NCBI GenBank assembly: GCA_048938295.1
Contig: JBHLMI010000008.1
Coordinates: 14,082 to 78,081, forward strand
Direction of reading: 5' to 3'
DNA from: Promethearchaeota archaeon
Lineage (GTDB): Archaea; Asgardarchaeota; Hermodarchaeia; Hermodarchaeales; Hermodarchaeaceae
DNA length: 64,000 nucleotides
The notes under the pieces are model-generated. The model made no database searches, had not been told where the DNA came from, and saw nothing but the letters and a program-made list of their open reading frames with translations. Below, piece after piece: positions 27,467 to 55,543 of this stretch. The position numbers and the translations under genes are program-made. The number at the start of each line of letters is the position of its first letter. Position 1 is the first letter of the stretch.

Positions 27467-28150
27467 TTATTTTTCAGCCCATTGCAATGGCTTGGTTTCA
27501 TTATAGATTAACCATCGAGTATCCACCCGAGTACCTCGAAGATGATGTAACCGAATTTTGTGTCTGAGCTGGCTTTTGTCTTCTTCATCACAGATTTCTA
27601 TAACACCATCCACGGAGAATCGCAAAGTTGCTACTACATCGTTTGTATGAACTCCTTCCTCAAGAAGGTAGATTCCAGTTACGCCACGATCCTTCACCCG
27701 AGCACAGAGGACTTGGAGGAATTTTATAACGGATAGTGGTGCTGAATAAGTCATCAAAGTTGTCAAGTTATCAAGGCAGAGGTGACCATTCTCAAGGTCA
27801 GCAATCGCTTGAAGAAGGAGTAAACTAATTGTATTCAGGTCATAGAGATTCTGAAATGAATACGGTTCTTTAGAGGGTTGAGCTGTAACACAAGAAACCC
27901 CATCAGCTATCCGAAGCTGGGAGGCTACTGGCTTTCCTCCGATTTGGCTAAGAGTCTGGCGTATTTGGGCAGGGGACCAGAGAGTCGTAGCAAAAACGGC
28001 GGGTTCTTTTACCTTTAGCCGATCAGCTAAATAGCGTAGAGCAAGGGTAGTTTTCACCACACCAGGAGGTCCAATGAGAAGTAGTTGTGATCCCCTTGGA
28101 AGCTCAAAAGCACCCTGGGGAACAAATGTTGGACTAATAAGGTCAATCAC
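27467..28150 (-). CDS. KaiC-like RecA-superfamily ATPase (single domain)
   Basis: Walker A GPPGVVKTT, Walker B-like hydrophobic strand ending in D/E. 8-nt overlap with the upstream KaiC-like gene. Confidence 0.7.
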   Translation of the reverse strand: MIDLISPTFVPQGAFELPRGSQLLLIGPPGVVKTTLALRYLADRLKVKEPAVFATTLWSPAQIRQTLSQIGGKPVASQLRIADGVSCVTAQPSKEPYSFQNLYDLNTISLLLLQAIADLENGHLCLDNLTTLMTYSAPLSVIKFLQVLCARVKDRGVTGIYLLEEGVHTNDVVATLRFSVDGVIEICDEEDKSQLRHKIRLHHLRGTRVDTRWLIYNETKPLQWAEK

Positions 28151-29045: not shown

Positions 29046-29786
29046 GTGGCTGAAAAGACAAAATCAGGTATACCAGGCTTAGATGAAGCATTGCATGGTG
29101 GATTTCCCACAGGCTCAGTGATTCTAATTAGTGGTGGACCGGGTACCGGCAAATCCATTCTACTAAACCAGTTTCTCTTCAATGGTGCGTCACAATTCAA
29201 GGAACCTGGGATCCTCGTCTCTATGGAAGAGTCACTCGCGTCGACGATTAGGAACATGAAACAATTTGGTTGGGATATGCAAGAACTCATGGATAAAGGC
29301 TTAATCGCCTTGGTCGATGCTTCGCCAATGATACAGAATGAACGTATTGTTCTCAAACCTGAGCACCCTGTTCTTGGACGAGAAGAATTTACAATGGAAT
29401 CACTACTGTCCTTGATACATCGTGAAATTCGACGCGTGAAAGCCAAACGTGTGGCCATCGACTCGATTTCGACCCTAACCCTCCAACACAAAGACCTCTT
29501 CCGGATTCGACACGACCTGCTTAACATGGTTCGTTCCCTTCGAATGAGTCAAGCCACCTGCTTGGTGGCAGTGGAAAGCCCCAACGAAGATAGCATCGGA
29601 CGATTTGACGTCGAAGGCTTCCTTATGGACGGAGTCATTATGATGAAACTCATGAGCCAGGGAGCGATCCGCATACGAACTATCGAAATTAACAAAATGC
29701 GTGGAACAAACCATCAAATGAATCCCCTACTCCTCATAATTGGAGAAAAAGGCATTCAAGTCTCCGACCTACCACCCATTCAATAA
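29046..29786 (+). CDS. KaiC-like RecA-superfamily ATPase (single domain)
   Basis: GIPGLDEALHGGFPTGSVILISGGPGTGKS, RVAIDSIS. Start taken at GTG 29046 with GGGGGAT ribosome-binding site; the ORF track gives TTG 29010. Confidence 0.75.
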   Translation: MAEKTKSGIPGLDEALHGGFPTGSVILISGGPGTGKSILLNQFLFNGASQFKEPGILVSMEESLASTIRNMKQFGWDMQELMDKGLIALVDASPMIQNERIVLKPEHPVLGREEFTMESLLSLIHREIRRVKAKRVAIDSISTLTLQHKDLFRIRHDLLNMVRSLRMSQATCLVAVESPNEDSIGRFDVEGFLMDGVIMMKLMSQGAIRIRTIEINKMRGTNHQMNPLLLIIGEKGIQVSDLPPIQ

Positions 29787-29883
29787 CCTCGATGAAAAAT
29801 ACCAGAATGAACCGACTAGCTTAAATCTCAACAAATGAAAGGAAATACCTGAGGGAAAAATCAACTGGGTTTGGTGACAAAAA

Positions 29884-30423
29884 ATGCGCCCCCAAAGCAG
29901 CCGTTACATGTTCAAGGTTTCGGTAATTGGCGATTACGCCGTGGGAAAAACCTCCCTAATTAAACGTTATATGACGGATTCCTTTGATGAAGGGTATAAA
30001 GCAACTCTTGGCGCTGCTATTTCCTCGTTCCAAACCAGCGTAAAGGGATCTGATGTCGCGCTGCAAGTTTGGGATCTAGCAGGCCAAACCTCCTTCCGTA
30101 GAGTTCGGGTACAATATCTATTCGGCACTGATTTCGCGATCGTGGTATTCGATTTAACAAGAAAAGATTCTTTGGACTGTGTTAAAGAATGGGTGAGTGA
30201 TGTAAGGCAGGGTGCGCCTGAAGTACTCCTATTCCTTGTTGGTAATAAGGCAGATTTGAAGGAAGATCGAGTGGTGAACCCTGTGGCTGCTGAGAAAGTC
30301 GGAAAAAGTTTGAATATGCTTGGCTACCTTGAGACCTCCGCAAAGGAAGGAACCAATGTCAAAGAACTCTTTCACATCATTTCCGAATACCTCTTAGAAC
30401 ATACATTCACTGTAATAAAATGA
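29884..30423 (+). CDS. Ras/Rab-family small GTPase
   Basis: G1 GDYAVGKTS, G3 WDLAGQ, G4 GNKADL, G5 ETSAKEG. 179 aa. Its stop overlaps the next start (ATGA). Confidence 0.85.
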   Translation: MRPQSSRYMFKVSVIGDYAVGKTSLIKRYMTDSFDEGYKATLGAAISSFQTSVKGSDVALQVWDLAGQTSFRRVRVQYLFGTDFAIVVFDLTRKDSLDCVKEWVSDVRQGAPEVLLFLVGNKADLKEDRVVNPVAAEKVGKSLNMLGYLETSAKEGTNVKELFHIISEYLLEHTFTVIK

Positions 30424-31898
30424 CAAAAAAGGTGCTCGAACGCGTGACACTCCCAAGGGAAATCACTGAATTCCTGAACGAGGAACAGGGACAAACTCTA
30501 CTCATCAAAGGAAAATCAGGAACTGGAAAATCCACACTAGCCTTATCCTTACTTGGTCATCTAGCCGAGACCCTACCTAAGAAATTCAGTGTTGAAAACT
30601 TTGTGTACCTTTCAACGCGTGTTGCAAGCTCGAGTCTGAAATCCCAATTTCCTTGGGCGTTTCAATTGCTTTCAGAAAATCAAATCATCGATGCGACACC
30701 ATCGCTCATGGGGCTTCCTGAAACCACCTTAGCGTGTGGGGAGTCATCTAACAATCGGATGGTGTACTCCGATGAGTTGACGTTCATTAGCGCAGTAAAT
30801 GATCGATTGCGGAACTTGACCAATCCTGTGTGTGTCATTGACTCATTTGATGCGATTATCGAAGCCGCGCAAGCTGACCCCCAGCGCCTGACAAGCGCAT
30901 TAACGAATCTTGGTCGCATCCTATGCGGTAAAATCATTCTTATTGTCGAAGGTATTGAGGAGTCGACGTTAGATCATATAGTCGATGGTATTGTATGCGT
31001 CACTAAGGAATTCACGGCAGAGCGGATGTGGCGTAGTCTTCGGCTAATCAAGCTCCGTGGTACGCCAATTGATCAAAGTATGCGAGGATTTTCTCTTCGG
31101 GGGAGTCGTTTTACCATTTTGCATTCATTTGATGCAGAACAAGCCAACCGCGTATCAGATTTCGAGGTCATCGCCCACTCTGGTGGTCGATTTTCGTCAG
31201 GAGTCCCAGAACTAGATACGGTTTTTGGCGGTTTCAGACGAGGAAGCACATTCTTCATTGATGTCGCCGAAGGCGTCGCCAACGAAACGGTTCACAGTCT
31301 AATCTTCAGCATGGTGGCGAACTTCCTACGCCAAGACAGCGGTGTTGTCATTGTTCCACCAAACAAACTGAGCTTCCGGCGACTCAAAGCAGCCTCACTT
31401 CGCTACGGATTTGTCGACCAACTCAACACACGCCTCCGCTTCTTCGCAAGTGCAGCGACTAGCCTAGGCGTTTCTAGTGCAACTGGAGAACTTGGTGAAC
31501 CATATTACAAAACCGTGGCATTCCGTGAAAGCTCTGATCTTGAGAATGCTTGGAGTATGGTGGTAGAAGAACTCAGAAATCAAGGGTGCAAAAACTTACT
31601 AAGCGTAGTAGGCTTTGGTTGGTTGCATTCATGGTTAGGCCCAACCGAATTACCACGTTGGGCTACGCGGATTGCCAATGATACCGCTACGGAAAGTAAC
31701 CTAGCAGTCACCATAGGCTATAGCAGTACAAAGGATATAAACCGATATCTGGCAGATTTAGCAGACATTCACGTTCAGTTAGCAGTAAAGGAAGGAGTCA
31801 CAGTCTTTCATGGAATCAATCCCTCGACTCCTCAATACTGCATCTACACACACCTTGTGGAGGGAAACCCACAAATTGGCTTCCAAGAAATCGGATAA
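30420..31898 (+). CDS. tandem KaiC-like protein (active N-domain plus degenerate C-domain)
   Basis: N-domain has Walker A GKSGTGKST. C-domain keeps the KaiC-like loop GVPELDTVFGGFRRGSTFFI but lacks GKT/S, so it is a pseudo-ATPase. Confidence 0.65.
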   Translation: MTKKVLERVTLPREITEFLNEEQGQTLLIKGKSGTGKSTLALSLLGHLAETLPKKFSVENFVYLSTRVASSSLKSQFPWAFQLLSENQIIDATPSLMGLPETTLACGESSNNRMVYSDELTFISAVNDRLRNLTNPVCVIDSFDAIIEAAQADPQRLTSALTNLGRILCGKIILIVEGIEESTLDHIVDGIVCVTKEFTAERMWRSLRLIKLRGTPIDQSMRGFSLRGSRFTILHSFDAEQANRVSDFEVIAHSGGRFSSGVPELDTVFGGFRRGSTFFIDVAEGVANETVHSLIFSMVANFLRQDSGVVIVPPNKLSFRRLKAASLRYGFVDQLNTRLRFFASAATSLGVSSATGELGEPYYKTVAFRESSDLENAWSMVVEELRNQGCKNLLSVVGFGWLHSWLGPTELPRWATRIANDTATESNLAVTIGYSSTKDINRYLADLADIHVQLAVKEGVTVFHGINPSTPQYCIYTHLVEGNPQIGFQEIG

Positions 31899-40404: not shown

Positions 40405-42318
40405 ATGGCATTTAAGGTGTGGGAGATATTGTCTAATAATCGCGGCTTACTTATCCTAGCATTTGTTTTTGCTTTTCTTTTAATTAATATATCAACACCT
40501 GCTCAAGTACCTGTGTTGGCTGAGAATTTTGAATTGAAACAGCCCGATTTTGGAAACGAACTGATAGCGTTTATTAGCCAAGTGAAAATGCAAAACGGAA
40601 ATGATAACTGGACAGTTCTTGTATATCTTGATGGAGATAACAATCTAGAGGAGTACGCGTTCGATGATTTGAATTCAATGGAGACAATTGGATCAACTCA
40701 AGATGTGAAAATTATTGTACTAGTTGATTTTTGGGATGGAACCTATACACCTTTTACAGGCGCAAAATGCTACGAAGTCAGCCAAGATTTGAATCAAAAC
40801 GTTATTAACTCAATCGAACTTGCTACACCACTACCCACGGAACCGGATATGGGTTCTCCCACTATTCTCCGAGATTTCATCGTGTTTGGTCAATCGTACG
40901 CTCCTGCTGACAATTATCTGCTGATTATTTGGGATCACGGGAGTGGGGCGTTTGGCTTGTGTGAAGATGAAACTAGTCAGTCTCAATTAACGATTGAGGA
41001 GTTGGAGCAAGCGCTCAGTGATTCACAAATTCAACATCTAGATATCGTGGCCTTTGATGCTTGCTTGATGGGGCAACTAGAGGTCGCTTACGAAATCCGT
41101 AATAGTACGGATTTAGTGGTGTTCTCGGAAGAATCAGTACCTGTGACGGGATTTCCATATGAAGATATACTACTTAACCTCACGACGTTTCCAACCTCAA
41201 CACCCAAAACTGTAGCATCCAGTCTTGTCTATTATTATGTAACGGCCTACGATATTGGTGGACGGTACTATGACCCTATGAACCTTGCTGTGTGTCTGTC
41301 CGCGATCGAATGCGATATGCTTGATGCAGTTGCTGAGGCATTGAATGAACTTGCACAGTTACTTTATACTAGTGTCAACGACCCCCAGCTCTATGAGGCG
41401 ATATCTTGGGCACGGGAAAGTACACAAAGTTTCTCATGGACTGAATTCATTGACTTGGACTCCTTCGCTTCAGCGCTTGCCACTCACCTTAATACTAATC
41501 CGTACTTTCAACGAGCCACCAATTTGTCCTCTTTCATCCAAGCAGCCGTTTACGAGGAACTACATCTAAGTGACGTTCCTGGTGCTCATGGGCTAGGCGC
41601 TGTGTTTGGTACTTATGGGTCTCATCAACTCGCTCTTGCCACCGATACAGAATGGGATGAATTCATTGAGGCATATCTGAATATCGGCGCATCATTTACT
41701 GAAGCTTGTCCACTCGTGCAATATCAAGGCCCAGGAGCTATTTTGGGTCTGCACTGTGGATATCTTGAAGGCGCTTATGATTCTGTATATTATATCTACA
41801 CTGCAACAGAAACAGGTCTGCATACCTTTACCATTGATGCAGCCTGGACCCAATTTGAAACTGACTTTGACCTCTACATCTACAATGCCTACCAAGGCCA
41901 ACTAGCTGAGTCGATCAGCAGTGACTCGTCAGAAACCATCACCATTAATCTGAGCGAAGGTAACACCTACTATATTGAGGTGTATTCGTATCCAACGGGC
42001 GATCTTAGTGCCGGTATCTTTCTACTCCAAGTTTTCACCCCCTCAAGTACTGGTCCTGCCTTTCCAATACCTCCCCTAACCATGATCATGTTAATCGCAG
42101 GTATCGTCGTCGGTATCCTTGTTGGCGTTATCACCATCATTATCTACCGACGAAGACAAACCAGCAGTACCGAACCCCCGTCCCGCTACACTGCCACAAC
42201 ATACATGCCCGGTTCAGCACCATCAACCACCGAAAGCACGAAATTCTGCGCCTATTGCGGTGGAGCAATCCCATCCCGTGCCCACTACTGCCCCATTTGC
42301 GGTTCCTCACTGGATTGA
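40405..42318 (+). CDS. secreted clostripain-like (C11) cysteine peptidase with C-terminal TM and cytoplasmic zinc-ribbon tail
   Basis: Signal-anchor at the N-terminus. WTVLVYLDGDNNLE, catalytic His in LIIWDHGSGAFG, catalytic Cys in DIVAFDACLMG. C-terminal TM LTMIMLIAGIVVGILVGVITIII, then CAYCGG..HYCPICG. Confidence 0.6.
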   Translation: MAFKVWEILSNNRGLLILAFVFAFLLINISTPAQVPVLAENFELKQPDFGNELIAFISQVKMQNGNDNWTVLVYLDGDNNLEEYAFDDLNSMETIGSTQDVKIIVLVDFWDGTYTPFTGAKCYEVSQDLNQNVINSIELATPLPTEPDMGSPTILRDFIVFGQSYAPADNYLLIIWDHGSGAFGLCEDETSQSQLTIEELEQALSDSQIQHLDIVAFDACLMGQLEVAYEIRNSTDLVVFSEESVPVTGFPYEDILLNLTTFPTSTPKTVASSLVYYYVTAYDIGGRYYDPMNLAVCLSAIECDMLDAVAEALNELAQLLYTSVNDPQLYEAISWARESTQSFSWTEFIDLDSFASALATHLNTNPYFQRATNLSSFIQAAVYEELHLSDVPGAHGLGAVFGTYGSHQLALATDTEWDEFIEAYLNIGASFTEACPLVQYQGPGAILGLHCGYLEGAYDSVYYIYTATETGLHTFTIDAAWTQFETDFDLYIYNAYQGQLAESISSDSSETITINLSEGNTYYIEVYSYPTGDLSAGIFLLQVFTPSSTGPAFPIPPLTMIMLIAGIVVGILVGVITIIIYRRRQTSSTEPPSRYTATTYMPGSAPSTTESTKFCAYCGGAIPSRAHYCPICGSSLD

Positions 42319-42434
42319 ATCCCACACCCAACCCTCCTTCCCCGAATATCCGTGTCACCTCAGACCACAGTAGGATACAAAAACTTCCCGAAAACTCTGA
42401 CACAAACGCTGTTCTTTTGCATCCCAGTTGCCGA

Positions 42435-42443
42435 CTTTAAGTA
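42435..42443 (+). promoter_or_regulatory. TATA-like box (CTTTAAGTA) about 30 nt upstream of the polB-like ATG
   Basis: Archaeal TATA consensus-like element with the expected spacing for a leaderless transcript. Confidence 0.25.
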
Positions 42444-42472
42444 GGGTGCTGAGAGAGCCGTCCTGACCAACA

Positions 42473-44680
42473 ATGCGTGGCTGGATCCTCGACGTAACTC
42501 CCCGGTCCGACCACTTGGTCCTGTGGTTGCGCACGGCAGCAAAATGCATTCCCTTGGAAATACCTTATCAGCCACAATTCTACTTACACGCACCTGGCGT
42601 CCAATTCGAGAACTATGCGCCGCTGTTCGAGAATCACCCACTGGTATGCGCTGTGACCCCGGCGTTTCGTCGGCTGCAATTGCGAGGCGCGCGACGACCG
42701 GTTCTCGCCGTAACAGTCTCCTCCTGCACCCAACTCTCCCGAGTCGTTCACGAAATCAAAACCCTCGCTGTCCCCCGTTTTCGCGTCTTCAACGGCGATC
42801 TCTCCGCAACCCAGCTCTGGTACCTCGAGCAACGGCGCTTCCCCTTCGAGCAGGTGGAGGTCCACACCGACCAGTCGGGGTCCCGTGTTACCCACATCGA
42901 CTCCTGCGACTCCCGGTGGGCCCTCGACTACGAACTGCCGTCCTTTGATACTGTGGACCTCCACCTAGAAGGAGAAGACCTGTTCTGTGCCACCAGCACC
43001 TCTGGTGAGACGTTGCAGACCACAGAGCCCATGATGCTCCAGGATTGGATTAACATTCAAGATCCGGACATCATCTTCACCGAAGACGGCGACTACCGCA
43101 TCTTTCCTACTCTCATTCGACGCGTCCAAGAGGAGGGGATGTTGCACCAGTTTTCGTTGAGTCGGGACCAGACTCCCCATGTCTTCAGTGACAAGACTCT
43201 GCCTGCAGGTCGTGCTGTCTTCCGGTATGGCGGCCCAGTCTTTTATCGTCCACACCCCTTTCTGCTCCATGGACGTTTGCATCTGGACCGATCACACATG
43301 ACCTTCGGTAACTTCGACGGACTCATCGAATCAAGTCGAATTACCGCCTTTCCGCCCCAGCGTATGGCGCGAAGCAGCCCGGGCACCGGTATCAATATGC
43401 TCCAGATGCAAGAGGCACTCAACCGTGGTGTCCTGATTCCCGAAACCAAAGCCGACCCAGAAGAGTACAAGACCGGGCTTGAACTCCTCAACGCTGACCG
43501 GGGTGGCCACGTCATCACCCCGCGTGTTGGCATCTTCAGTGAAGTCGGCGAACTCGACTTCCTGTCCATGTATCCGTCGCTGATGGTCAAGTATAACATC
43601 TCGCCGGAAGCCTTGTTCTGCGACTGTTGCCCCGAGGACGCCACTGTGGTGCCCGAGATAGGCTATTGGTTATGTCGGCGCCAGCGCGGCATTGTCCCTA
43701 CCTTCCTTGAACCTATTCTCAAGAAACGAATCTACTACAAGCGACACCGCCATGATGACCCTATATACGAGGCGCGGCAAGCCGCGTTGAAATGGCTCCT
43801 CGTCGTCTCCTTTGGTTACCTCGGGTTTCGAGCCTCACGATTTGGTCGCGTCGAAGCCTATGAATGTGTCACAGCCTTCAGTCGACGGGTCCTGCTGCAG
43901 ACCAAAGCCGTCTGTGAACGCAAAGGCTTTGATGTGCTCCATGGCATCGTGGACTGCGTCTGGCTGCAGAAGCCCGGCGCCACTGTCGAAGACTACCTGA
44001 CCGCCGGCGAAGCCGTTGAGGAAGTGACCGGACTACCGATAGAATTTGAAGGCCGCTATCGGTGGATTATGTTCTTGCCTTGTCGCAATCAACCCTACGG
44101 CGCGCTGACACGCTACTGCGGAGTAAAACACGATGGTACCATTAAAGCCCGAGGCATTGAACTGCGACGCCGTGATACTCCACCGTTCATCAAGCAACTC
44201 CAGATGGACCTCCTCACTTGTCTGGCGGGAGCTGAAGACACTGATGAGATGCAGCAACTGCTCCCGCAATTGCTCGATATCGTCAAAGACTATCTTGACC
44301 TTTTGCACAGCGGTGGAATGACAACGGAGGACCTCATCATCACTCAACGCATCAGCCGATCCCCCCACGAATACCAGCAGCAGTGCAGCCAGGCCATTGC
44401 CGCTGAACTCGCCATCCGATACGGGCAAGACATCCAGCCAGGACAAGCCATTAAGTACGTGCACACCGACTCCACGTCTCGTCATCCATTGCGCCGTGTC
44501 GCGCTCCCCCACACCGCAGCAGCAGTCCACTATGACAAGGACAAATACACCGAGCTGCTGCTCCGCGCCGCCGATACCCTCCTGACACCCCTCGGTTGGA
44601 ATTACGAGCGGCTCACACAATACTTCAGCGATAAACCAGTCCAAACCTTGCTGGACTCTCATATTCGAGTGCGAAAGTAG
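42473..44680 (+). CDS. family-B DNA polymerase paralog (GC-rich; degenerate exonuclease motifs and degenerate motif C)
   Basis: N-terminus MRGWILDVTP.. resembles archaeal PolB N-termini. Pol motif A LDFLSMYPSLM, motif B KWLLVVSFGYLGF, KxY-region KARGIELRRRDTP. Motif C position reads VLHGIVDCVWL instead of YxDTDS. Exo I position is HLE instead of DxE; Exo II is DGDYRIFPTL. GC content of the ORF is about 58%, against roughly 40-45% in surrounding genes. Confidence 0.7.
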   Translation: MRGWILDVTPRSDHLVLWLRTAAKCIPLEIPYQPQFYLHAPGVQFENYAPLFENHPLVCAVTPAFRRLQLRGARRPVLAVTVSSCTQLSRVVHEIKTLAVPRFRVFNGDLSATQLWYLEQRRFPFEQVEVHTDQSGSRVTHIDSCDSRWALDYELPSFDTVDLHLEGEDLFCATSTSGETLQTTEPMMLQDWINIQDPDIIFTEDGDYRIFPTLIRRVQEEGMLHQFSLSRDQTPHVFSDKTLPAGRAVFRYGGPVFYRPHPFLLHGRLHLDRSHMTFGNFDGLIESSRITAFPPQRMARSSPGTGINMLQMQEALNRGVLIPETKADPEEYKTGLELLNADRGGHVITPRVGIFSEVGELDFLSMYPSLMVKYNISPEALFCDCCPEDATVVPEIGYWLCRRQRGIVPTFLEPILKKRIYYKRHRHDDPIYEARQAALKWLLVVSFGYLGFRASRFGRVEAYECVTAFSRRVLLQTKAVCERKGFDVLHGIVDCVWLQKPGATVEDYLTAGEAVEEVTGLPIEFEGRYRWIMFLPCRNQPYGALTRYCGVKHDGTIKARGIELRRRDTPPFIKQLQMDLLTCLAGAEDTDEMQQLLPQLLDIVKDYLDLLHSGGMTTEDLIITQRISRSPHEYQQQCSQAIAAELAIRYGQDIQPGQAIKYVHTDSTSRHPLRRVALPHTAAAVHYDKDKYTELLLRAADTLLTPLGWNYERLTQYFSDKPVQTLLDSHIRVRK

Positions 44681-44687
44681 TCTGCAT

Positions 44688-45869
44688 CTACTTGTGTAAA
44701 AATTCTGTTATGCGTGATGCTGCTTCACGTATCCGATTCGGTGGAGCAGAGCCCACACTGATGCGAATGTTATTGGGGTAGGCAGACCCAAATTGATCTC
44801 CAGGAACGACAACCACGCCCTTCTCTTCGAGGAGAGAGACAGCAAATTCAGGTCCTGTCATCCCAGTGTCTTCCACATCGGGAAACAGATAGAAGCCTGC
44901 CACAGGTTCATAGGTGAATGTGAAGCCTTTGATGGGCTTGAAACTTTCAAGGGCCACTTTGCGACGATCGTCTAAGACATTACGATGCTGCTCAATGATT
45001 CCCTTGAAGGCGGTGGGATTTGACAGCGTCTTCATAGCACCTACCTGAATAGGAGTGGGAGCACAGGCGGTATTATATTGGTGCACCTGATAGATCGGAC
45101 GCATCAACTTCACAGGAGCTATGACATAACCAAGGCGTAACCCAGTCATCGCTAATGCCTTGGAAAAACTATTGGCGATAATGACATTATCTCGATCAAA
45201 GTTGGCAGCACAGGTGTGTGGATGACCATCAAAACGTAAGAATTCATAGCATTCATCGGAAATTAGAATACTATCATACTCGCTAGCTAGTTCAACAATT
45301 GTCTTTATACTCTGATCTGAAGCCACTGAGCCAGTTGGATTACACGGTGAATTAATAATGACCATTTGAGGAGGTTTCTTTTCAAATTCAGCACGATACT
45401 TGTTAGCATCTAGGTCAAATGCTGAAGTCATTGGAATCAATTTCACCTCTGCTCCTGCAAGTTTTGCTTGGTTTGCGAAGTAACCAAACGCAGGGTCTTG
45501 AACAAACACCAAATCGCCAGGATTAATTAGAGCCAGCATTGCATCAAGCAGGCCCTCCAAGGCGCCACAAGTTACCAAAATCTCATCAGCCGTATAATCC
45601 AGGTTGTAGGTTTCCTGATACCGGTCGGCAATAGCTTGACGTAATTCAAGAATACCCGCATTAGAGGAATAATGGGTTTGCCCTGTTGCGAATGCGTCGG
45701 CAATGGCATCGCCTAGAAAGGGAGGGAGGGGTAAGTCCAAATCCCCAATGCCTAAGGAGATCACATCCACCCCTTTAGCTGCCAGCCTAGAACCAATTTC
45801 GAAAAACTCTCGAAGCCCGCTAGGTGAAACACCTTGTAAACGTGAAGCAGTTTTGACAGTCTTTGGCAT
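44688..45869 (-). CDS. class I/II PLP-dependent aminotransferase (aspartate aminotransferase-like)
   Basis: PLP-lysine motif NSFSKALAMTGLRLGY. ..SPCNPTG... Start moved to the internal ATG (MPKTVKTAS). Confidence 0.85.
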   Translation of the reverse strand: MPKTVKTASRLQGVSPSGLREFFEIGSRLAAKGVDVISLGIGDLDLPLPPFLGDAIADAFATGQTHYSSNAGILELRQAIADRYQETYNLDYTADEILVTCGALEGLLDAMLALINPGDLVFVQDPAFGYFANQAKLAGAEVKLIPMTSAFDLDANKYRAEFEKKPPQMVIINSPCNPTGSVASDQSIKTIVELASEYDSILISDECYEFLRFDGHPHTCAANFDRDNVIIANSFSKALAMTGLRLGYVIAPVKLMRPIYQVHQYNTACAPTPIQVGAMKTLSNPTAFKGIIEQHRNVLDDRRKVALESFKPIKGFTFTYEPVAGFYLFPDVEDTGMTGPEFAVSLLEEKGVVVVPGDQFGSAYPNNIRISVGSAPPNRIREAASRITEFLHK

Positions 45870-46023
45870 AAATTCAGGCTCCTCTCGATCATCGTCCCCT
45901 TTCCATACTCGTTTCTCCTTGAAAAAGTTCTGTACACACCAAATAATCAATACCTAGACTGATTGGTGAAATAAGATAGAAATTTCTAAAGCTATTTTAA
46001 GGAACAAAAGGCAATCTTGAGTC

Positions 46024-47779: not shown

Positions 47780-48040
47780 CTATATCGCAATGCAGGTTTC
47801 TGTGCGATTTACTCCATCCACACTATGGATACCTTCCATTACTTCCCTCAAATCCTCTGTAGAGGGAAGTACAGCATAAGCAATCACATCATAAGGTCCT
47901 GTTACGACATTGGATCGGTCGACACCTGAAATTTTCCCAATGGCTTGAGCGACATCCCATACCTTCCCTGCTTCAACCCGTATCAGAATGTATACAACTA
48001 CCGGCACTTCAATCACTACTTCAAAGTATATCTCAACCAA
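47780..48040 (-). CDS. stand-alone Lrp/AsnC C-terminal (RAM) domain protein
   Basis: VVYILIRVEAGKVWDVAQAIGKISGVDRSNVVTGPYDVIAYAVL matches the RAM-domain pattern. There is no HTH. Confidence 0.5.
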   Translation of the reverse strand: MVEIYFEVVIEVPVVVYILIRVEAGKVWDVAQAIGKISGVDRSNVVTGPYDVIAYAVLPSTEDLREVMEGIHSVDGVNRTETCIAI

Positions 48041-48913: not shown

Positions 48914-49567
48914 CTAGCCTGGGAAGTGTGGACCTGATAAAACTGGGAAATGATCCATTTGGCTCTTCAAGGCATCGAGTTTTTTGAGGAGTTCTTGGTG
49001 CATTGCGGTGATGCTCATAATCACCGTGCCATCTAGACTTTGCTTCTCAGCCAGCATTGCAGCTTCGTCTTGTAAGCGTCCAGCAACCGAGACCATATCC
49101 GCGAGTCGTTGAATCATGCTTTTCATCAGGGTTTCCGTATCGCTGATGACAATGCGATCGGAGCGGAAAATCTGTTTCACATCAAAGCCGTTGAAGCTGA
49201 GTGGCTTATCCTTATATTGGTCAATAACTTCAGCGGTGTACGATTGAAGGAATAAGGAGCTTAACCGGTTCAGCGCATCATTGAGCTCAAACTCATCATG
49301 ATCGTTTGATGACAGAATCACAAAAACGAGACTCTCAAACACGTTAAAAGCCATTTTTACTTGTAACAACCGCAACCGTTCTAAAGCTCCTGCATTCCGC
49401 AACACATTCACAAGAGTGACTGCAAGAGTCGAAAACACGGAGGGATCCATCCCAATCGCCGCCAACCGACTTTTACCGGCAGGAGCCAAGTGGAAGAGTG
49501 GATTCTCAGTTTGCCGATGCACTATGAGGATATCATGGATCATTGTAGCCTTACCTTCCCAACACAA
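48914..49567 (-). CDS. hypothetical protein
   Basis: 217-aa ORF with no clear motif; likely start at internal ATG (MIHDIL...). Confidence 0.35.
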   Translation of the reverse strand: MCWEGKATMIHDILIVHRQTENPLFHLAPAGKSRLAAIGMDPSVFSTLAVTLVNVLRNAGALERLRLLQVKMAFNVFESLVFVILSSNDHDEFELNDALNRLSSLFLQSYTAEVIDQYKDKPLSFNGFDVKQIFRSDRIVISDTETLMKSMIQRLADMVSVAGRLQDEAAMLAEKQSLDGTVIMSITAMHQELLKKLDALKSQMDHFPVLSGPHFPG

Positions 49568-49701: not shown

Positions 49702-50973
49702 TTATTCTCTATGGATTCTTCTATTCTGAGTATATTTGTTGATGATTAGCAGAGAAGCTGCTATTCCGAAGATTAAGGCCAAGAAGCCAGCTAGATTTAC
49801 AAAAGCATTTGGTGTTGAAGCTGAGTCTGATAGTGAGGGTAATACGTAGTCTTTGACAAGATTAAGAAACGGAACACCATCAGGTTCTTCAGCTGTAACC
49901 ACAATCACTAAGTCATGTTGGGGAATGACGCAGATCCCCTGACCCCCAGCACCAAACGCAGCGTAAGCACCAATAATGGGATAGATTATCCAATGGTATC
50001 CATAACCATAGCCGGGACAGAACATCGTATGCATTTGTGTTGATTCAACAACCCACTCTTCCGAAATCACCTGTTGCTGTTCCCATCGCCCCTTATGTAA
50101 ATAGAGAAACCCATACTTGGCCATATCTCGTGGTAAGAGACTAAGTCCAAAACCACCATAATTGATTCCCTGACGATCCGACTCCCAATAGTGGCGTGTA
50201 ATCCCTAGGGGTTGAAACAAATGCTCAGCAGCAAAGTGGTGCATACTTTCTCCGCTAGTGACGGTGATGAGTGTTGAGAGCATGGATGAGGCACCCGTGT
50301 TGTAGTACCATTTCCAATTGGGTGCACATTCCATCGGCAAATCAAGGAAGAACTGGACACTATCCTCACTCTGTATCCATTGCACAAAGGAATTTCTTGA
50401 ATCATCATAAGAGTAGGTTCCTTCATCCCATTGAAGGCCTGTTTTCATTGTTAACAAATCCCGAACAGCAATCATATCCTTCAATGGGTTCGGGTTTGCC
50501 ACGGTCCGGTTAGGAAAATATGCGAGAACAGGATCCTGAATATTGCCAATATAGCCTTCATCGACCGCAATCCCAAAGATGCCTGCGGTGACGCTCTTAG
50601 TGACAGAAGCGAGAAAGTGAAGCTGATTCTCATCGTAGGCAGGATTAGGATAGGTTTCGAAGACAATGTATCCATGGTGCACGACCAAGAAAGCGTTATA
50701 GCACAGCTCATAAGAATTTAGCTTCGCATCTAATAGGTCCAAGAGACGTGAATCCATGCCCTGAGATTCCGGAGAAGCGAATAGCCAACCATCAGTGGGC
50801 CAATAATCTGGTTCACTTGGAGTACCATTAAGGTTCGATGAAGGTAGTGCGGCACTCACTGGAATGAGAAAAAACAACACAACCCAGAGAACCTGAAACC
50901 GAACATTCACTTGCCGTACCTCAGGTAGACCAGCCTCCAATCTAGTAGTTAAAAACTCAAATGATACAGGCAA
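49702..50973 (-). CDS. serine beta-lactamase/esterase family protein with N-terminal signal-anchor and C-terminal TM
   Basis: SxxK motif in FLASVTKSVTAG. C-terminal TM LAGFLALIFGIAASLLII. Confidence 0.6.
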   Translation of the reverse strand: MPVSFEFLTTRLEAGLPEVRQVNVRFQVLWVVLFFLIPVSAALPSSNLNGTPSEPDYWPTDGWLFASPESQGMDSRLLDLLDAKLNSYELCYNAFLVVHHGYIVFETYPNPAYDENQLHFLASVTKSVTAGIFGIAVDEGYIGNIQDPVLAYFPNRTVANPNPLKDMIAVRDLLTMKTGLQWDEGTYSYDDSRNSFVQWIQSEDSVQFFLDLPMECAPNWKWYYNTGASSMLSTLITVTSGESMHHFAAEHLFQPLGITRHYWESDRQGINYGGFGLSLLPRDMAKYGFLYLHKGRWEQQQVISEEWVVESTQMHTMFCPGYGYGYHWIIYPIIGAYAAFGAGGQGICVIPQHDLVIVVTAEEPDGVPFLNLVKDYVLPSLSDSASTPNAFVNLAGFLALIFGIAASLLIINKYTQNRRIHRE

Positions 50974-50985
50974 ATCACAAAAGAA

Positions 50986-51315
50986 TCACAATTCGGCTTG
51001 CACCCGTCGCACAAACCCTTGGTAGTTGTGATTAGCAATCGAGCTCGCATGACCTGCCACCGTGGCCAGAGCCAGACGCAACTGTAGCACCTCCTGATAC
51101 AGCCCCAGGATCATAGACATAAACAAGGCTTCAGAGGCACACGGACGAGCCACAGCACTGGCTGCATCCGCATAGGTCCGCGCATAGACAAAGAGGTTAT
51201 CAAAGGCGGGTTGCTCGTCGGCACGCAACGCGGCACGAAAGATTCCCCAACGCCGGCGCTCCTTTTCCAGTTGTAGTCGATAGGTAGGTACTGTACGTCC
51301 CATCAAACACACCAC
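50986..51315 (-). CDS. hypothetical GC-rich small ORF immediately downstream of the RNR gene
   Basis: 109 aa with GC-rich codons. No motif recognised. Confidence 0.3.
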   Translation of the reverse strand: MVCLMGRTVPTYRLQLEKERRRWGIFRAALRADEQPAFDNLFVYARTYADAASAVARPCASEALFMSMILGLYQEVLQLRLALATVAGHASSIANHNYQGFVRRVQAEL

Positions 51316-51409
51316 CGGTGAGACTGGACGTACGGCTAAAAAGGCACCAGCACTGATGCAAGAAATCGCCCATCATTCCCCAGGAATGACCCAGTTCTTG
51401 CTGTCACCC

Positions 51410-54400
51410 CTAGGGGCTGTCCGTGAAGCGGACATCCTCACAAGTCGGGCACCCAGCATACAACACCTGCAGTCCTTCCAGGGATCCATCACGGAACACG
51501 GTGATGCCCTTCAACCCCAACTCATCCGCCAACAAGAATACCCGACGAATATCCTCCGTCGAAGCGTTGTTAGGCACATTAACGGTTTTGCTTACTGCAT
51601 TGTCTGTGTGTTTCTGGAAGGCTGCTTGCACGCGCACATGCCATTCAGGATCGATTTCATGAGCAGTTTTGAACAAGCGCTTGATATCGTCTGGTACACC
51701 TTCCACGTCCTGTACAGATCCCGTCGATGCCACTTCCTGCTCAACAGCTTCACACCAGAAGCCACGTTCTTCAGCAATTTCGACGAAGTATCTGTTTGTA
51801 TCCGTCAAGCGGACACCTTCAGTGAGTACCCGATCATGCACAATAGCAAACAAAGGTTCAATCCCACTACTGGTCCCCGCAATCAAGCTAATACTCCCAG
51901 TAGGGGCAATCGTGATTAGCGTTGCATTCCGCTTCCATTTCCGACGCTGCTTCAATAAATCAATGTGCTCGAAGTTACCCCGCACCTTCGCCAGTTCCGC
52001 TGACGCCCGCTCCGCACGATTCCGAATGAACTCCATCACCTGTTCCGCTAATTCCAAGGCTTTCTCGGAATCGTATGGAATCCGCAGCTGAATGAGCATC
52101 TCCGTCCAGCCCATAATCCCAAGCCCAATCTTCCGCGTGGCTTTGGTCTGAATGGCAATCTCTTCCACCGGATACTTATTCAAATCAATAATATTATCCA
52201 AGAACCGCACCGCCAACGGAATAATTTCACCCAACCGCTTCCAATTCACCTCACCATCCTCCACTAGGCGGGATAAGTTGATGCTACCTAACACGCACGA
52301 CTCGTAAGGCAAAAGTGGTTGCTCACCACAATTTGAAACAATGATTCCTGATAGTTTTTTGTTCCCCTTTTTGCTTTCATACTCTCTAGTTATCGTGGCA
52401 AAATTATGATAGTCATCTACCGTGATGTTATAGACATCGGAGATTCCACAATCTTGAACCGAAGCAACTCGATGATTCAATTCAGCAATGGCAGGTTTGT
52501 TTAATGCCCTATAGGTATTGGAACAACCTCTTGAACAACATACCTGTGGTTTTGATTTGATATACTCAATTCGCGTACCACAAACCGGACACTCGCCTTC
52601 CAAATTACTATCTTTCCACCTTTCTTTCGCAGCTATGCTTATTTTCTCCCGAATTTCTTGATCAGCCATTACTTCATTCATTCTTTCTCGGAAAATCTTG
52701 CTAAACTTCTTGTCAGAGAATCTTCTTCGGGTTGATTCACTAATTTTTACTCTTGTTTCATACGAGTGAATTCTGCCGAACATACCATTGTCTTCACCAG
52801 ATCTCCCAACAGCCAGGTGTTCCTTAATCCAATCCTCTGGCATACGATGATAGGGATTGTTAGATCCAAGCATATCTCGTCGATGAAGCTTTCTGTGCTC
52901 ATGGGATGTCATAATTTGAATATTTGCCCATGAATTATCCAATGTATCATAGTTTATGTGATGAACAACCTCACTTCGCTTTAATTTCCGTCCAAGCATA
53001 AATTCTGCAATTATTTTATGCTCTCCACGATGAAACACATTCTGATTTTGATGAATATGCCAATACTTGCTTTTCTTACCTCGTTGTCTGTATTGAATCT
53101 TGAAAAATGGCATTATTCGATCCCCCTCCTTCAGGCTGCCTGCTTCAACATAAGAACCGTCCCTTAGCATCACTCTATGGTTTTTAGTGAGTTTGAGAGA
53201 ACTATTATCATCAAAAGTAACTTCAACAATTGGAACTTGTTCTCTTGTTTTTCTTGGATTTCGACCCATTCTGACAACCATCCCATCGCCTGACCAACAA
53301 AAGACTGGAACACCTCTACCCTCTCGGGCAAGGTCCTCAATTGACACATAATTTCTCCCATCAGCGACGGCAATAAGCGTATCACCAGAAACACACGGAT
53401 TCGTTGATTCTATTTGTTTGCCTTTGAGGGGGTGTTCGTCGTTAATGCGATCGATGAAGATCATGCCGGGGTCCCCGGTGTTCCAGGCGTTCAGGATCAT
53501 AGAGTCGAAGATCATGCGAGCACTGATGGTTTGCTCGACTTCACCGGTGTGAGGGTTGATCAAGTCGATGTTCCCACCGGTTTTCAAGGCATGCATGAAC
53601 TCGTGGGTGACGGCGACGGAGATGTTGAAGTTACGGAAGGATTTCTTGTCGGCTTTCGCACTAATGAACTCCATGATATCCGGATGATCACACCGCAAGA
53701 TAGCCATGTTCGCACCGCGTCGCTTGCCTCCTTGTTTAATAACATCGGTAGCAGTATCATAGATGCGCATGAAGGAGACTGGACCGCTGGCGACTCCACC
53801 TGTAGATCCGACTGTTGTACCCTTTGGTCGGAGCTGAGAAAAAGAGAATCCCGTATTGTGTACTACCACAAGATGGCCATTTCCTGCTAGATAATTCTGG
53901 TTTATCGGAACAGAGAAGTCATAAAGAGTGGCACTTTCCCCTTTAATTTCTACATCTTTTACCTGAATTCTACGAAAACTGAATGGCTTATGTTTGCTTA
54001 GTCGGGGTTTCCGTTCGGTCGGGAATAAACGTCCATAGCCTGTTGAGAAAGCAATTTCCCATCCTGTGGATCGAATACCAAAACGGGTTCTATCTCGTCT
54101 TCTAACCTTGTAATTTATTCCGATCATTGCGAGGAGGCTGGAGAGAAAGTCCTTTAGTGAGTCTGATGATGTGTAAAGACTTATCACATCTCGACCAAAG
54201 TAGCCATCTCCGTCTAATAGCCCAGCAATAAAAGAAAATGGTGCACCAGGTATGAATTGAGGAGTTAGCTTATCTTCCCCAACGATTTCGTATAAATGAT
54301 AAATGAATGAATCTTTCTTTTTGGTAGTGGTTTTTAGAATATAGCAATTTTCTCTTGGATCTTTTTGTAGCTTCAATCGGCGTGTGTTTCTATACTTTGC

Positions 54401-55543
54401 AATGATTCGATTTGCTCTTTGAAGAATTTCCTGACGTTCATCAAATAGACGTAGTCTAAGGCCATTGACTGTTATATCAAAACATCCATCAGCTATGATA
54501 TATCCAATTAGCCACCAGAGACTGGCTTCCTTCTCAGTGAGTGGAACATCAAAAATCCCATTCTTCAGTAATGAATCACCTGAAACGAGCTCATCTGCAC
54601 GTTTGATTTGGATTTTCTCGCCATTCCATACATAAAAAGGGTGCCAACAACTGGTTTCGATTTGTCCATTTGAACCATACGAGATTCGTACTGTTTTGTC
54701 TAAGGCGAATTTCCATCCCTGACTTACAGGTCGTTCTTCAAAGATTTGCAGTACAGGATTCCATGAATACAAGGTAATTGGAGATATTGTTTGTGGGAAT
54801 CCTGTGATAGTTATATCTTTCATTCCGGGAATCTGCTCTATTTCTACTAGCCCATGTTCTTTTGTTAAGACCTTTGTTCCTTCTTTGACACACCCACCGC
54901 CAGATTTCTGAACTCGGGCCATATGCCAGAGGGTGTTGAAGATGGAGTCGATGTCGTCGCGAATTGGTAGCACAAAGCAAGCGCTGAGTTGTCCGATATC
55001 GGTGCCAGCGTTATAGAGGGTGGGGCTGTTAGGCATGAACTCGAGGTTGGCGATCATATCATAGAAGAGCTGTTCGTAGGTTTTATAGTCGGCACTTTTA
55101 TCGAAGATCTTTTCGGCTTTTGCGACTGCTTTCGCGACGCGATGGAAGAGTTGTGATGGGGTTTCGATGGGAGTACCGTCATCGTCTTTGAGGAGGTAGC
55201 GTTTGGCCACTGTGGCGGCGTTCGGTCCTAATTTCAGATCGTCGACTACCCCTACGGTGCGGAGTAGGCGTCGTGCAACGGCTCGTTTCTCGCGGTATTT
55301 GATGTAGCGCTTTGCTGTCTCAGTATAGCCGTTGACCATTAGTACTTCTTCAACGATATCTTGGATTTCTTCAATGTGAATTGTGTCAACGTTTTTGTTC
55401 TTGATGATTTTGATAACTTTGTCTGTTAGTTTTTTTGCAGGTTTTGAATCTGCTTTATGTGATTCAAAAGCACGTCGAATGGCGTTCTCGATTTTGGTTG
55501 GATCCCAGTCAACAATACGTCCGTCACGTTTCTCAACTTTCAC
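51410..55543 (-). CDS. nrdJ: class II (adenosylcobalamin-type) ribonucleotide reductase with N-terminal ATP-cone and two inteins
   Basis: GTG start. ATP-cone VEKRDGRIVDWDPTKIENAIRRA. RNR blocks PNSPTLYNAGT, KSGGG|TGFSFSQLRP, ESTNP|CGEQPL (active-site Cys), C-terminal Cys pair GCPTCED. 1377-aa precursor; about 676-aa spliced protein. Confidence 0.9.
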   Translation of the reverse strand: MKVEKRDGRIVDWDPTKIENAIRRAFESHKADSKPAKKLTDKVIKIIKNKNVDTIHIEEIQDIVEEVLMVNGYTETAKRYIKYREKRAVARRLLRTVGVVDDLKLGPNAATVAKRYLLKDDDGTPIETPSQLFHRVAKAVAKAEKIFDKSADYKTYEQLFYDMIANLEFMPNSPTLYNAGTDIGQLSACFVLPIRDDIDSIFNTLWHMARVQKSGGGCVKEGTKVLTKEHGLVEIEQIPGMKDITITGFPQTISPITLYSWNPVLQIFEERPVSQGWKFALDKTVRISYGSNGQIETSCWHPFYVWNGEKIQIKRADELVSGDSLLKNGIFDVPLTEKEASLWWLIGYIIADGCFDITVNGLRLRLFDERQEILQRANRIIAKYRNTRRLKLQKDPRENCYILKTTTKKKDSFIYHLYEIVGEDKLTPQFIPGAPFSFIAGLLDGDGYFGRDVISLYTSSDSLKDFLSSLLAMIGINYKVRRRDRTRFGIRSTGWEIAFSTGYGRLFPTERKPRLSKHKPFSFRRIQVKDVEIKGESATLYDFSVPINQNYLAGNGHLVVVHNTGFSFSQLRPKGTTVGSTGGVASGPVSFMRIYDTATDVIKQGGKRRGANMAILRCDHPDIMEFISAKADKKSFRNFNISVAVTHEFMHALKTGGNIDLINPHTGEVEQTISARMIFDSMILNAWNTGDPGMIFIDRINDEHPLKGKQIESTNPCVSGDTLIAVADGRNYVSIEDLAREGRGVPVFCWSGDGMVVRMGRNPRKTREQVPIVEVTFDDNSSLKLTKNHRVMLRDGSYVEAGSLKEGDRIMPFFKIQYRQRGKKSKYWHIHQNQNVFHRGEHKIIAEFMLGRKLKRSEVVHHINYDTLDNSWANIQIMTSHEHRKLHRRDMLGSNNPYHRMPEDWIKEHLAVGRSGEDNGMFGRIHSYETRVKISESTRRRFSDKKFSKIFRERMNEVMADQEIREKISIAAKERWKDSNLEGECPVCGTRIEYIKSKPQVCCSRGCSNTYRALNKPAIAELNHRVASVQDCGISDVYNITVDDYHNFATITREYESKKGNKKLSGIIVSNCGEQPLLPYESCVLGSINLSRLVEDGEVNWKRLGEIIPLAVRFLDNIIDLNKYPVEEIAIQTKATRKIGLGIMGWTEMLIQLRIPYDSEKALELAEQVMEFIRNRAERASAELAKVRGNFEHIDLLKQRRKWKRNATLITIAPTGSISLIAGTSSGIEPLFAIVHDRVLTEGVRLTDTNRYFVEIAEERGFWCEAVEQEVASTGSVQDVEGVPDDIKRLFKTAHEIDPEWHVRVQAAFQKHTDNAVSKTVNVPNNASTEDIRRVFLLADELGLKGITVFRDGSLEGLQVLYAGCPTCEDVRFTDSP
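52331..53395 (-). mobile_element. intein 2 (355 aa) with HNH homing endonuclease, inserted at the active-site NP|CGE cysteine
   Basis: Starts CVSGDTLIAV (block A), ends GIIVSN with +1 Cys (the catalytic Cys of NPCGE). HNH motif EVVHHINYDTLDNSWANIQIMTSHEHRKLH. Additional CPVCG..CCSRGC Zn-finger. Penultimate Ser instead of His. Confidence 0.8.
53855..54892 (-). mobile_element. intein 1 (346 aa) with LAGLIDADG homing endonuclease, inserted in the GGG|TGF motif
   Basis: Starts CVKEGTKVL (block A), ends HLVVVHN with +1 Thr. Two LAGLIDADG motifs: LIGYIIADG and FIAGLLDGDG. Boundary codons checked against the nucleotide sequence. Confidence 0.8.

Follow-up and report, generated by a model that had tools for sequence, protein, structure and literature searches.

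Family B DNA polymerases of the archaeal PolB2 group are defined by the change of the YxDTD signature to HxxxD together with a dead, partly decayed exonuclease domain (PMC4104785; PMC11791011). They have been called 'inactivated archaeal family B polymerases' (Rogozin, 2008, as cited in Makarova, 2014, PMC4104785) and the family was long predicted to be inactive (PMC4104785). Inactivation has since been overturned for the characterised member, since Dpo2 of Sulfolobus islandicus, whose motif C reads IID, is described as polymerising DNA robustly, as lacking exonuclease, as specialised in the extension of termini that are mismatched or paired to a lesion, and as needed for damage-induced mutagenesis (PMC8764526). 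In published models PolB2 forms a mutasome with a trimer of the protein PPB2 and with iRadA (Timinskas et al., 2025, PMC11791011); the MGRT arm of PPB2, with Arg3 and Arg9, contacts the D(K/R) motif of the polymerase, the loop preceding this motif is the modelled iRadA-binding element, and the clamp motif is usually carried by either PolB2 or iRadA (PMC11791011). Among the Asgard archaea, a PolB2 from Thorarchaeota was already aligned in the 2022 paper (PMC8764526) and Lokiarchaeota entries in the supplement of PMC11791011 read HGIVDS / IVD. Here we describe a PolB2 gene (polB2) of Hermodarchaeota, located in a stretch of 64,000 nucleotides from a Promethearchaeota archaeon (assembly GCA_048938295.1, contig JBHLMI010000008.1, positions 14,082 to 78,081), referred to as the window. 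Loci from other genomes are designated by an L and a number.

The comparative analysis makes it very probable that this open reading frame (ORF) encodes a functional translesion polymerase of the PolB2 type, resident in the Hermodarchaeota chromosome, and neither a dead paralog nor a recent foreign island. The gene and its two neighbours are the following.

42473..44680, + strand: polB2 gene, 735 aa, PolB2-family (Dpo2-like) family B DNA polymerase; coextensive with the GC-rich tract
40405..42318, + strand: clostripain-type C11 peptidase gene, flanking polB2 on the 5' side
44688..45950, - strand: convergent class I/II aminotransferase gene, flanking polB2 on the 3' side

The protein is recognized by Pfam PF00136 (E = 2e-31), and the best NCBIfam matches fall under their cut-offs (384 vs 516). 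Its closest relatives, of the same length and 65-87% identical, come from metagenome-assembled genomes labelled Hermodarchaeota or Promethearchaeota (Asgard). After a gap there are hundreds of proteins with 35-40% identity from Bathyarchaeia, Hadarchaeota, Thermoplasmatota, Nitrososphaeria-type archaea, Nitrospirota and other bacteria. Full-length PolB2 relatives with PPB2/iRadA neighbours score 460-530 bits, and canonical PolB3 and PolB1 reach 144 and 105 bits, with similarity essentially restricted to the polymerase half. In the comparison of 87 loci, a PPB2 gene was found directly upstream of polB2 in about 45-50 of the non-Hermodarchaeota ones, many of which also have iRadA. At the loci of these more distant relatives the polymerase gene almost always follows a small gene starting with MGRT and often also a ~220-aa gene matching the iRadA profile; one bacterial locus adds lexA and DUF72 genes. 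Three loci (L028, L034 and L054) have one stop codon each in the translated tblastn match range of the PolB2 gene.

The AlphaFold model of the protein (predicted local distance difference test, pLDDT, 88.3; predicted template modelling score, pTM, 0.85) superposes along its whole length on crystal structures of archaeal PolB, with template modelling (TM) scores of 0.60-0.73, in agreement with the collinearity proposed in an initial annotation of this DNA. Domain order and fold are shared with the canonical PolB3 of Pyrococcus / Thermococcus (e.g., PDB 4flt, 4k8z), and motifs A and B are found in both; the canonical enzyme differs in that YxDTD, DxE, FD, YxxxD and KxY are all intact and it is an active proofreader. 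Motifs were placed by a HMMER alignment to the PolB of Pyrococcus abyssi and by an alignment of 23 PolB2 family sequences, with the following result.

42953..42973, + strand: Exo I position VDLHLEG (residues 161-167), in which DxE reads H164-L-E166
43088..43114, + strand: Exo II position GDYRIFPTL (206-214), with Ile210 in place of the catalytic Asp
43493..43507, + strand: D(K/R) loop motif ADRGG (D342-R343), a conserved PolB2 motif
43556..43579, + strand: Pol motif A DFLSMYPS (362-369), metal-ligand Asp362 and steric-gate Tyr367 kept
43619..43675, + strand: Cys cluster CxCC-N14-C (C383, C385, C386, C401) between motifs A and B, (near-)invariant in PolB2
43790..43825, + strand: Pol motif B KWLLVVSFGYLG (440-451), an intein-free allele in the window
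43940..43957, + strand: Pol motif C HGIVDC (490-495), the PolB2 HxxxD signature, second, metal-binding Asp494 kept
44105..44125, + strand: KxY region, reading TRY (546-548), Lys lost
44642..44665, + strand: C-terminal motif QTLLDSHI (724-731) resembling a PCNA-interacting protein (PIP) box, on a disordered tail containing a short helix

Motifs A and B are intact, as had been annotated, and motif A aligns to DFRSLYPS of P. abyssi PolB. Motif C aligns to YIDTDG, with the first Asp lost, and HGIVDC is read by all 30 proteins of the Hermodarchaeota clade that contain this region. In the 23 diverse PolB2 sequences H490, I492, V493, D494, D342, D362, Y367 and K440 are invariant, as are G344 and G345 in the D(K/R) loop, a region (~residues 321-350) modelled with a low pLDDT of 58-74. 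Since H490, I492, V493 and D494 do not vary in the family, HGIVD[C/S] is a conserved signature and not a sign of decay. At the region of the Cys cluster, which may be a metal site, canonical Thermococcales PolB has two Cys.

The exonuclease domain is kept in the fold and its proofreading site is absent, as had been annotated: the carboxylates of Exo I and Exo II are replaced and the segment bearing Exo III is mostly gone, with ~15 residues left between GRLHLD and SRITAFP, a span that we take to be ~73 residues in Pfu PolB. The register of Exo I, based on the alignment, the hydrophobic pattern and a predicted strand (160-166) for TVDLHLE, is less certain than that of the other motifs and supports the HLE reading that had been proposed. 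This position is variable across the family (e.g., E/K, V/I), so that PolB2 has no conserved exonuclease site. For Exo II, GDYRIFPTL aligns to NGDNF(D)FPYL of P. abyssi PolB and most of the aligned relatives read GDSF[LIV]FPYL, leaving Ile210 at the position of the Asp whose loss had been noticed. No intact DTD, FD or DxE turned up in these alignments. The KxY region had been taken as intact and is not, its Lys being replaced by Thr here and by Asn in most family members.

The replacement of the first Asp of DTD, of the exonuclease carboxylates and of the KxY Lys could also be explained by a PolB paralog that has lost catalysis and persists in a structural or regulatory role, as the years of predicted inactivity of the family would have it (PMC4104785). 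We find this quite unlikely, because the Dpo2 enzymes of S. islandicus and S. solfataricus, with an equal HxxxD/IxD motif, are robust polymerases (PMC8764526), the residues coordinating metal and dNTP (D362, D494, K440 and Y367) are invariant, and the gene is under strong purifying selection (dN/dS = 0.074 in the closest pair). The earlier description as an inactivated PolB family member was therefore correct in that the protein belongs to the group historically so named, with identical substitutions (PMC4104785), and unsupported as to the inactivation itself, HxxxD being family-invariant and Dpo2 active.

A functional PolB2 would carry out catalysis with Asp362 of motif A and Asp494, the second Asp of motif C, using the family-invariant HxxxD in place of YxDTD. 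By analogy with S. islandicus Dpo2, the absent exonuclease and the lost primer-sensing Lys of KxY would suit the extension of mismatched or lesion-paired primer ends. The polymerase probably acts with a trimer of the small helical PPB2 protein, whose MGRT arm would dock on the D(K/R) loop, as modelled in the literature (PMC11791011), and it probably reaches the sliding clamp by its own C-terminal PIP-like tail, the rarer arrangement according to PMC11791011. The tail motif Q-x-x-L-D-x-[HY]-[LIF] is kept in most of the closer Hermodarchaeota relatives and makes PCNA binding probable; the deepest members diverge here (QQTLLQFI, QHSLLDFA, or no clear match). In the model, residues 721-735 have a pLDDT <50, with a helix at 727-732.

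The gene of the putative partner was found in the window as well.

50986..51303, - strand: PPB2 (arCOG07300 / DUF8156) partner gene, 105 aa, N-terminus MGRTVPTYR (MGRT, R3, R9)

In phmmer searches this protein matches 48 PPB2-type (MGRT) ORFs elsewhere (E = 2e-22 to 3e-9), 43 of them outside Hermodarchaeota and mostly located directly upstream of polB2. The closest of these non-Hermodarchaeota matches are from Bathyarchaeia, and the gene directly upstream of the LexA-linked bacterial polB2 is 35% identical (E = 2e-13). Orthologs carry PF26485, the DUF8156 label being a precomputed annotation, and scans of the window protein with local copies of Pfam and NCBIfam gave no match. PPB2 lies 6.3 kb from polB2, on the opposite strand and with five unrelated ORFs in between, so the two genes do not form one operon; the same is true of L001-L004 and L009, and the distance in Hermodarchaeota is 6-8 kb, on opposite strands. 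Helarchaeota/Lokiarchaeota loci are dispersed too (PPB2 and polB2 at 3195-3467 / 10001-12220 in L088 and at 1822-2097 / 6526-8760 in L089), with gaps of 4.4-6.5 kb that contain AFOR, Ras-GTPase and unknown genes, and without an adjacent iRadA.

Several other genes surround PPB2. A gene for a beta-lactamase-fold membrane protein (49702-50973, - strand) starts 12 nt past the PPB2 stop codon, an adjacency kept in L003 and L004 and not in L001, and its co-transcription with PPB2 is possible. A 217-aa protein (48914-49567, - strand) with a weak longin match (Fuz_longin_1, E = 0.002) and a coiled-coil tail appears in all Hermodarchaeota loci, and in L001 its gene is directly downstream of PPB2. Between polB2 and PPB2 there is also a stand-alone AsnC-type ligand-binding (RAM) domain protein devoid of a helix-turn-helix (47780-48040, - strand), the most conserved of the neighbourhood with 87-96% identity across Hermodarchaeota loci.

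The two distant genes share a two-box promoter element, whose components in the window are as follows.

42376..42443, + strand: polB2 promoter, with distal box, proximal box, 14-nt spacer and TATA-like element, conserved in 10 Hermodarchaeota loci
42376-42384, + strand: polB2 distal box TACAAAAAC
42412-42421, + strand: polB2 proximal box TTCTTTTGCA
42436-42443, + strand: polB2 TATA-like element TTTAAGTA, ending 29 nt before the ATG
51335..51401, - strand: PPB2 promoter, with the architecture of the polB2 one and a 14-nt spacer
51394-51401, - strand: PPB2 distal box GCAAGAAC
51357-51365, - strand: PPB2 proximal box TTTCTTGCA
51335-51342, - strand: PPB2 TATA-like element TTTTTAGC

The common architecture consists of a distal [T/G]CAA[A/G]AA, ~27-28 nt, a proximal TTCT[T/C]TTGCA or TTTCTTGCA, exactly 14 nt, the TATA-like element, ~30 nt and the start codon. 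It is present at polB2 in ten Hermodarchaeota loci and at PPB2 in five, and in the alignment of these 15 promoters the CAA, T.TTGC and TT columns are invariant and the 14-nt spacer is fixed. At PPB2 in L003, L004 and L009 the distal box is a perfect inverted repeat of the proximal one (TGCAAGAAA / TTTCTTGCA). The composite pattern of proximal box, spacer and TATA retrieved seven polB2/PPB2 promoters and one other site in all the Hermodarchaeota loci. Since synonymous sites are saturated between these genomes, the conservation of the promoters indicates a function, and because both genes carry the element they are likely switched by one regulator, plausibly on DNA damage.

When compared with Dpo2 of S. 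islandicus and S. solfataricus, a damage-inducible translesion 'extender', the Hermodarchaeota enzyme has likewise a family B fold, no exonuclease site and a D(K/R) loop (PMC8764526). Motif C reads IID in one and IVD in the other, both HxxxD with Ile for the first Asp, and both have a PPB2 partner bearing the MGRT N-terminus. They differ in size, since the Sulfolobus protein is given as the smallest PolB2 described (PMC8764526) and that of Hermodarchaeota, with 735 aa, has a fuller N-terminal/exonuclease region. They also differ in gene arrangement, a single operon with iRadA as described for Sulfolobus versus a PPB2 gene 6.3 kb off on the other strand and no iRadA found in the window. Activity and damage induction are known from Sulfolobales, whereas the Hermodarchaeota enzyme is known here from its sequence. 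With the modelled mutasome it shares the PolB2/PPB2 interaction motifs (MGRT, R3 and R9 on one side, ADRGG on the other). The survey of Timinskas et al. (PMC11791011) covers only loci with the genes together, and Hermodarchaeota are absent from it; dispersed mutasome genes with no adjacent iRadA are seen in Hermodarchaeota and in one Lokiarchaeota and one Helarchaeota locus.

Family B lesion-bypass enzymes of other subfamilies are the eukaryotic Pol zeta and E. coli Pol II. Pol zeta is an extender without proofreading. Both keep the DTD motif, and Pol zeta works with the partners Rev7 and Pol31/32, Pol II with none.

The most conspicuous property of polB2 is its base composition. The ORF has a GC content of 0.565, and 0.651 at third codon positions (GC3), and the stretch 42100-44685 has 0.560 versus 0.451 in the remaining window. 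The maximum among all the 2.2-kb stretches of the window that do not overlap the ORF is 0.496 (z = 6.5 for polB2), the 35 other ORFs have a mean GC3 of 0.449 (sd 0.043; z = 4.7 for polB2), and the adjoining genes have a GC of 0.446-0.469. The GC richness described in the initial annotation is therefore real, and so is that of the C-terminal tail of the peptidase (0.543 for 42100-42318), although the region upstream of polB2 is not ~58% GC, the 154-bp intergenic measuring 0.506. GC steps down at the ORF ends, falling to the baseline within 100 nt of the stop codon, and no consistent regional gradient runs into the neighbouring genes. In some orthologs motif B is interrupted between V445 and S446 by a LAGLIDADG intein of 531 aa (between nt 43807 and 43808 of the window; junctions in L005 KWLLVV/C...HN/CFGYLG, marked by slashes), and the GC3 of this intein is at the baseline (0.454) versus 0.598 for the exteins. 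Both C and G are raised at third positions in polB2, unlike in the C3-rich/A3-rich genes of the window. The protein is richer in Arg, Cys, His, Pro and Gln and poorer in Asn, Lys and Ile than the background (Arg 1.7x, Lys 0.63x, Asn 0.38x, Ile 0.66x; R/(R+K) 0.73), a shift that could go back to the ancestor of the gene and possibly to a foreign source. Among the remaining ORFs of the window, PPB2 alone is GC-rich (GC 0.56).

A way to approach the age of this anomaly is to follow it through the relatives. The offset of polB2 is +0.10 to +0.125 GC in all eight Hermodarchaeota loci. In 51 PolB2 loci of other lineages its mean is +0.016 (sd 0.035), and in the Lokiarchaeota and Helarchaeota loci it is +0.03 and +0.05, which rules out a GC excess of the whole family. 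Among the deep Hermodarchaeota lineages codon identity at conserved residues (e.g., 0.336) equals the expectation under independence (0.334 in the same comparison), so that synonymous memory has been lost between lineages. The GC3 offset is nevertheless kept in each of them (+0.14 to +0.21) and polB2 GC3 tracks the local baseline GC3 with a slope of 0.80 +/- 0.16 (r = 0.91, p = 0.005). An offset that persists after saturation and tracks the baseline excludes a single ancient transfer followed by neutral amelioration. Given the sharp borders, the spared intein and the survival of the offset beyond saturation, the GC excess is a property bound to the ORF and maintained. Outside this clade, two bacterial PolB2 genes are strong GC outliers in the contigs that carry them, one of Anaerolineales (L046, 276-2426; +0.11 GC, GC3 z = 14) and one of Chlorobiaceae (L024, 4607-6802; +0.05, z = 7), and both are candidates for truly recent transfer.

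The gene had been regarded as a foreign segment, probably horizontally acquired. A GC-rich island of this kind, perhaps acquired with PPB2 and with a composition that is the still-ameliorating residue of the donor, would account for the shifted GC, GC1 and amino-acid usage, and the sharp ORF borders and baseline-GC intein suit a foreign ORF as well. Along these lines, the Hermodarchaeota clade is isolated, the next relatives having 35-40% identity, and PolB2 transfer among archaea is reported to be frequent (PMC11791011). In a neighbour-joining tree the clade sits alone on a long branch between bacterial and archaeal groups and does not group with the PolB2 of Lokiarchaeota or Helarchaeota, the most similar sequences being, marginally, those of GC-rich Nitrospirota; the tree has no outgroup root and is prone to compositional artefacts. 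Synteny argues against it. In eight related Hermodarchaeota loci polB2 occupies the same neighbourhood and even relatives with an identity as low as 67% preserve the order C11 peptidase (TldD/PmbA in L004), polB2, aminotransferase and pyridine nucleotide-disulfide oxidoreductase, interrupted only in L001/L002 and L005/L006 by one or two additional genes. The genomes rank alike by the amino-acid divergence of polB2 and by that of the neighbouring genes, and both facts date any transfer before the radiation of the clade. Since that time neutral decay would have erased the offset, yet every lineage keeps it although its synonymous sites have been randomised between the deep lineages. In addition, the PPB2 of the window is closest to that of Bathyarchaeia and not to bacterial ones, the dispersed layout seen also in Lokiarchaeota and Helarchaeota hints at a shared Asgard ancestry, and repeats, tRNA and integrase are absent. 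Taken together with the low dN/dS, these data speak against a recent acquisition, and we see the island as a minority explanation, conceivable and rather unlikely. An ancient acquisition by the ancestor of Hermodarchaeota is possible, though it would not explain the present GC3.

A more specific version, for which the initial annotation named a virus or mobile element, would make polB2 what remains of the replication module of a virus, casposon, pipolin or plasmid. Mobile elements often encode family B polymerases, and there are weak PHROG matches, for polB2 a partial one to phrog_262 (91 bits, residues 307-483) and for PPB2 one to phrog_30126, a virus-derived family without a known function (E = 5e-10), the latter implying that PPB2-like genes occur in sequences of viral or proviral class. 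As already annotated, no integrase or Cas1 domain was found in the Pfam-scanned ORFs and no terminal repeats in the flanks; the search for direct repeats around 41800-45200 was negative, the flanks contain no tRNAs or Rfam families, and the terminal protein linked to some mobile-element polymerases was not found here either. In 2.9 million viral contigs there were only five matches, all distant (31-40% identity) and none close, and polB2 is surrounded by genes of housekeeping type whose order is conserved. DTD and an active exonuclease are retained in the casposon and protein-primed groups of PolB, unlike the substituted motifs found here. A mobile origin of this kind is highly improbable.

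The intein suggests yet another mechanism: its repeated homing into motif B and loss from it could drive GC-biased gene conversion and so lift the GC of the exteins. Close relatives differ in whether they carry the intein, implying recurrent recombination at this locus; heteroduplex repair would not reach the intein itself, whose GC is at the baseline; and GC3 is raised uniformly, unlinked to residue conservation. However, GC3 has no peak at codon 445, its maxima being at codons ~90-180 and ~330-390, GC returns to the baseline within 100 nt of the stop codon with no consistent gradient into the neighbours, and another gene of the window with two inteins is not GC-rich. This gene codes for a ribonucleotide reductase (51410-55543, - strand, 1377 aa, with an ATP-cone and with LAGLIDADG and HNH endonucleases in its inteins), the only other DNA-metabolism gene of the window, with an ordinary GC of 0.445 and GC3 of 0.437. 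We therefore judge gene conversion to be an improbable cause.

Other candidates were discarded. Avoidance of lesions through fewer template dipyrimidines was unexceptional beyond the effect of GC (z = -1.1 to -1.8), and the long antisense ORFs are not conserved in the orthologs, so there is no overlapping antisense gene. A structured RNA was considered since polB2 contains a perfect 15-nt inverted repeat (42852-42866 / 42952-42966, 85 nt apart); orthologs keep 8-13 of the 15 complementary positions with no compensatory pattern, and the repeat probably derives from the peptide repeats VEVH and VDLH. PPB2 shares the GC3 anomaly only weakly, its GC being mostly in codon positions 1 and 2. The likeliest cause, with weak support, is selection at the nucleotide level on the polB2 coding sequence or mRNA, possibly seeded by an ancient GC-rich origin. 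Tentatively, and with more doubt than confidence, both anomalies may be joined in one model in which the GC3 of Hermodarchaeota polB2 (~+0.2 above the genome) is held by selection at the DNA or mRNA level, and the split polB2 and PPB2 genes are co-switched by a regulator binding the TGCAAGAAA / TTTCTTGCA inverted boxes. If so, atypical codons, the stability of the mRNA or the occupancy of chromatin might be the means by which GC3 selection throttles or conditions how an error-prone polymerase is expressed, and there would be an Asgard DNA-damage regulon unlike those of LexA (bacterial) or Orc1-2/TFB3 (Sulfolobales).

Several observations weigh against the main reading, that of a functional translesion PolB2 with a co-regulated PPB2 partner and a maintained GC excess. 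The Hermodarchaeota clade is just 35-40% identical to any other PolB2, its activity is read by analogy, and in the family alignment ~13-25 residues are missing behind Exo I. A canonical three-protein mutasome is at most putative here: no iRadA turned up in the 64-kb window or, in the related loci, at distances up to 10 kb. A hidden Markov model built from 36 operon iRadAs retrieved 71 ORFs in other loci, none in the window and none in 13 Hermodarchaeota loci; tblastn with a bacterial iRadA found nothing, and hhalign of five candidate ORFs against iRadA was negative (probability <=15%). Co-regulation is suggested by sequence conservation only, the 8-mer by itself is not enriched in the window (5 found versus 3.45 expected), and the TTCTTGCA boxes are not visible in the Lokiarchaeota and Helarchaeota loci. 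As for the cause of the GC excess, translational selection is rejected because G3 rises too and conserved residues show no preference for GC-ending codons (odds ratio 0.8-1.0 in six of seven lineages), the GC3 offset of PPB2 is small and inconsistent, and no specific nucleotide-level function was found behind the excess of polB2.

Two proteins were rejected as the iRadA sought, a protein that is described as highly divergent (PMC4104785) and could be encoded elsewhere in the genome: the 217-aa longin-like protein near PPB2, negative by hhalign, and a 227-aa KaiC-like protein (27467..28150) with a degenerate Walker A, equally negative and without a match to the iRadA profile. The latter belongs to a cluster of KaiC/RadA-superfamily P-loop genes (27467-31898) adjoining a Ras-family GTPase gene, whose members have 227 aa (Walker A GPPGVVKT), 235 aa, 258 aa and 492 aa (GvpD-like). 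Small Ras/Arf-family GTPases and a TackOD1-domain protein are encoded at 57812-58807 (- strand), 29884-30423 (+ strand) and 4570-5487 (+ strand), and are consistent with an Asgard chromosomal origin of the window.

The polymerase described here is a new member of the known PolB2 family, and its gene-specific GC offset is a modest compositional puzzle. It indicates that HxxxD and a dead exonuclease in a family B polymerase are to be read as the marks of an archaeal translesion extender, carried also by Asgard archaea, and not of a pseudo-enzyme. Beyond the literature that we found, the mutasome genes are dispersed in several Asgard lineages and linked in Hermodarchaeota by a conserved promoter element, which provides a handle for finding the DNA-damage regulator of Asgard archaea and its regulon. 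The GC3 offset of polB2, maintained past saturation, is a natural test case for amelioration versus biased gene conversion versus nucleotide-level selection in archaea, and a caution that GC islands need not mean recent transfer.

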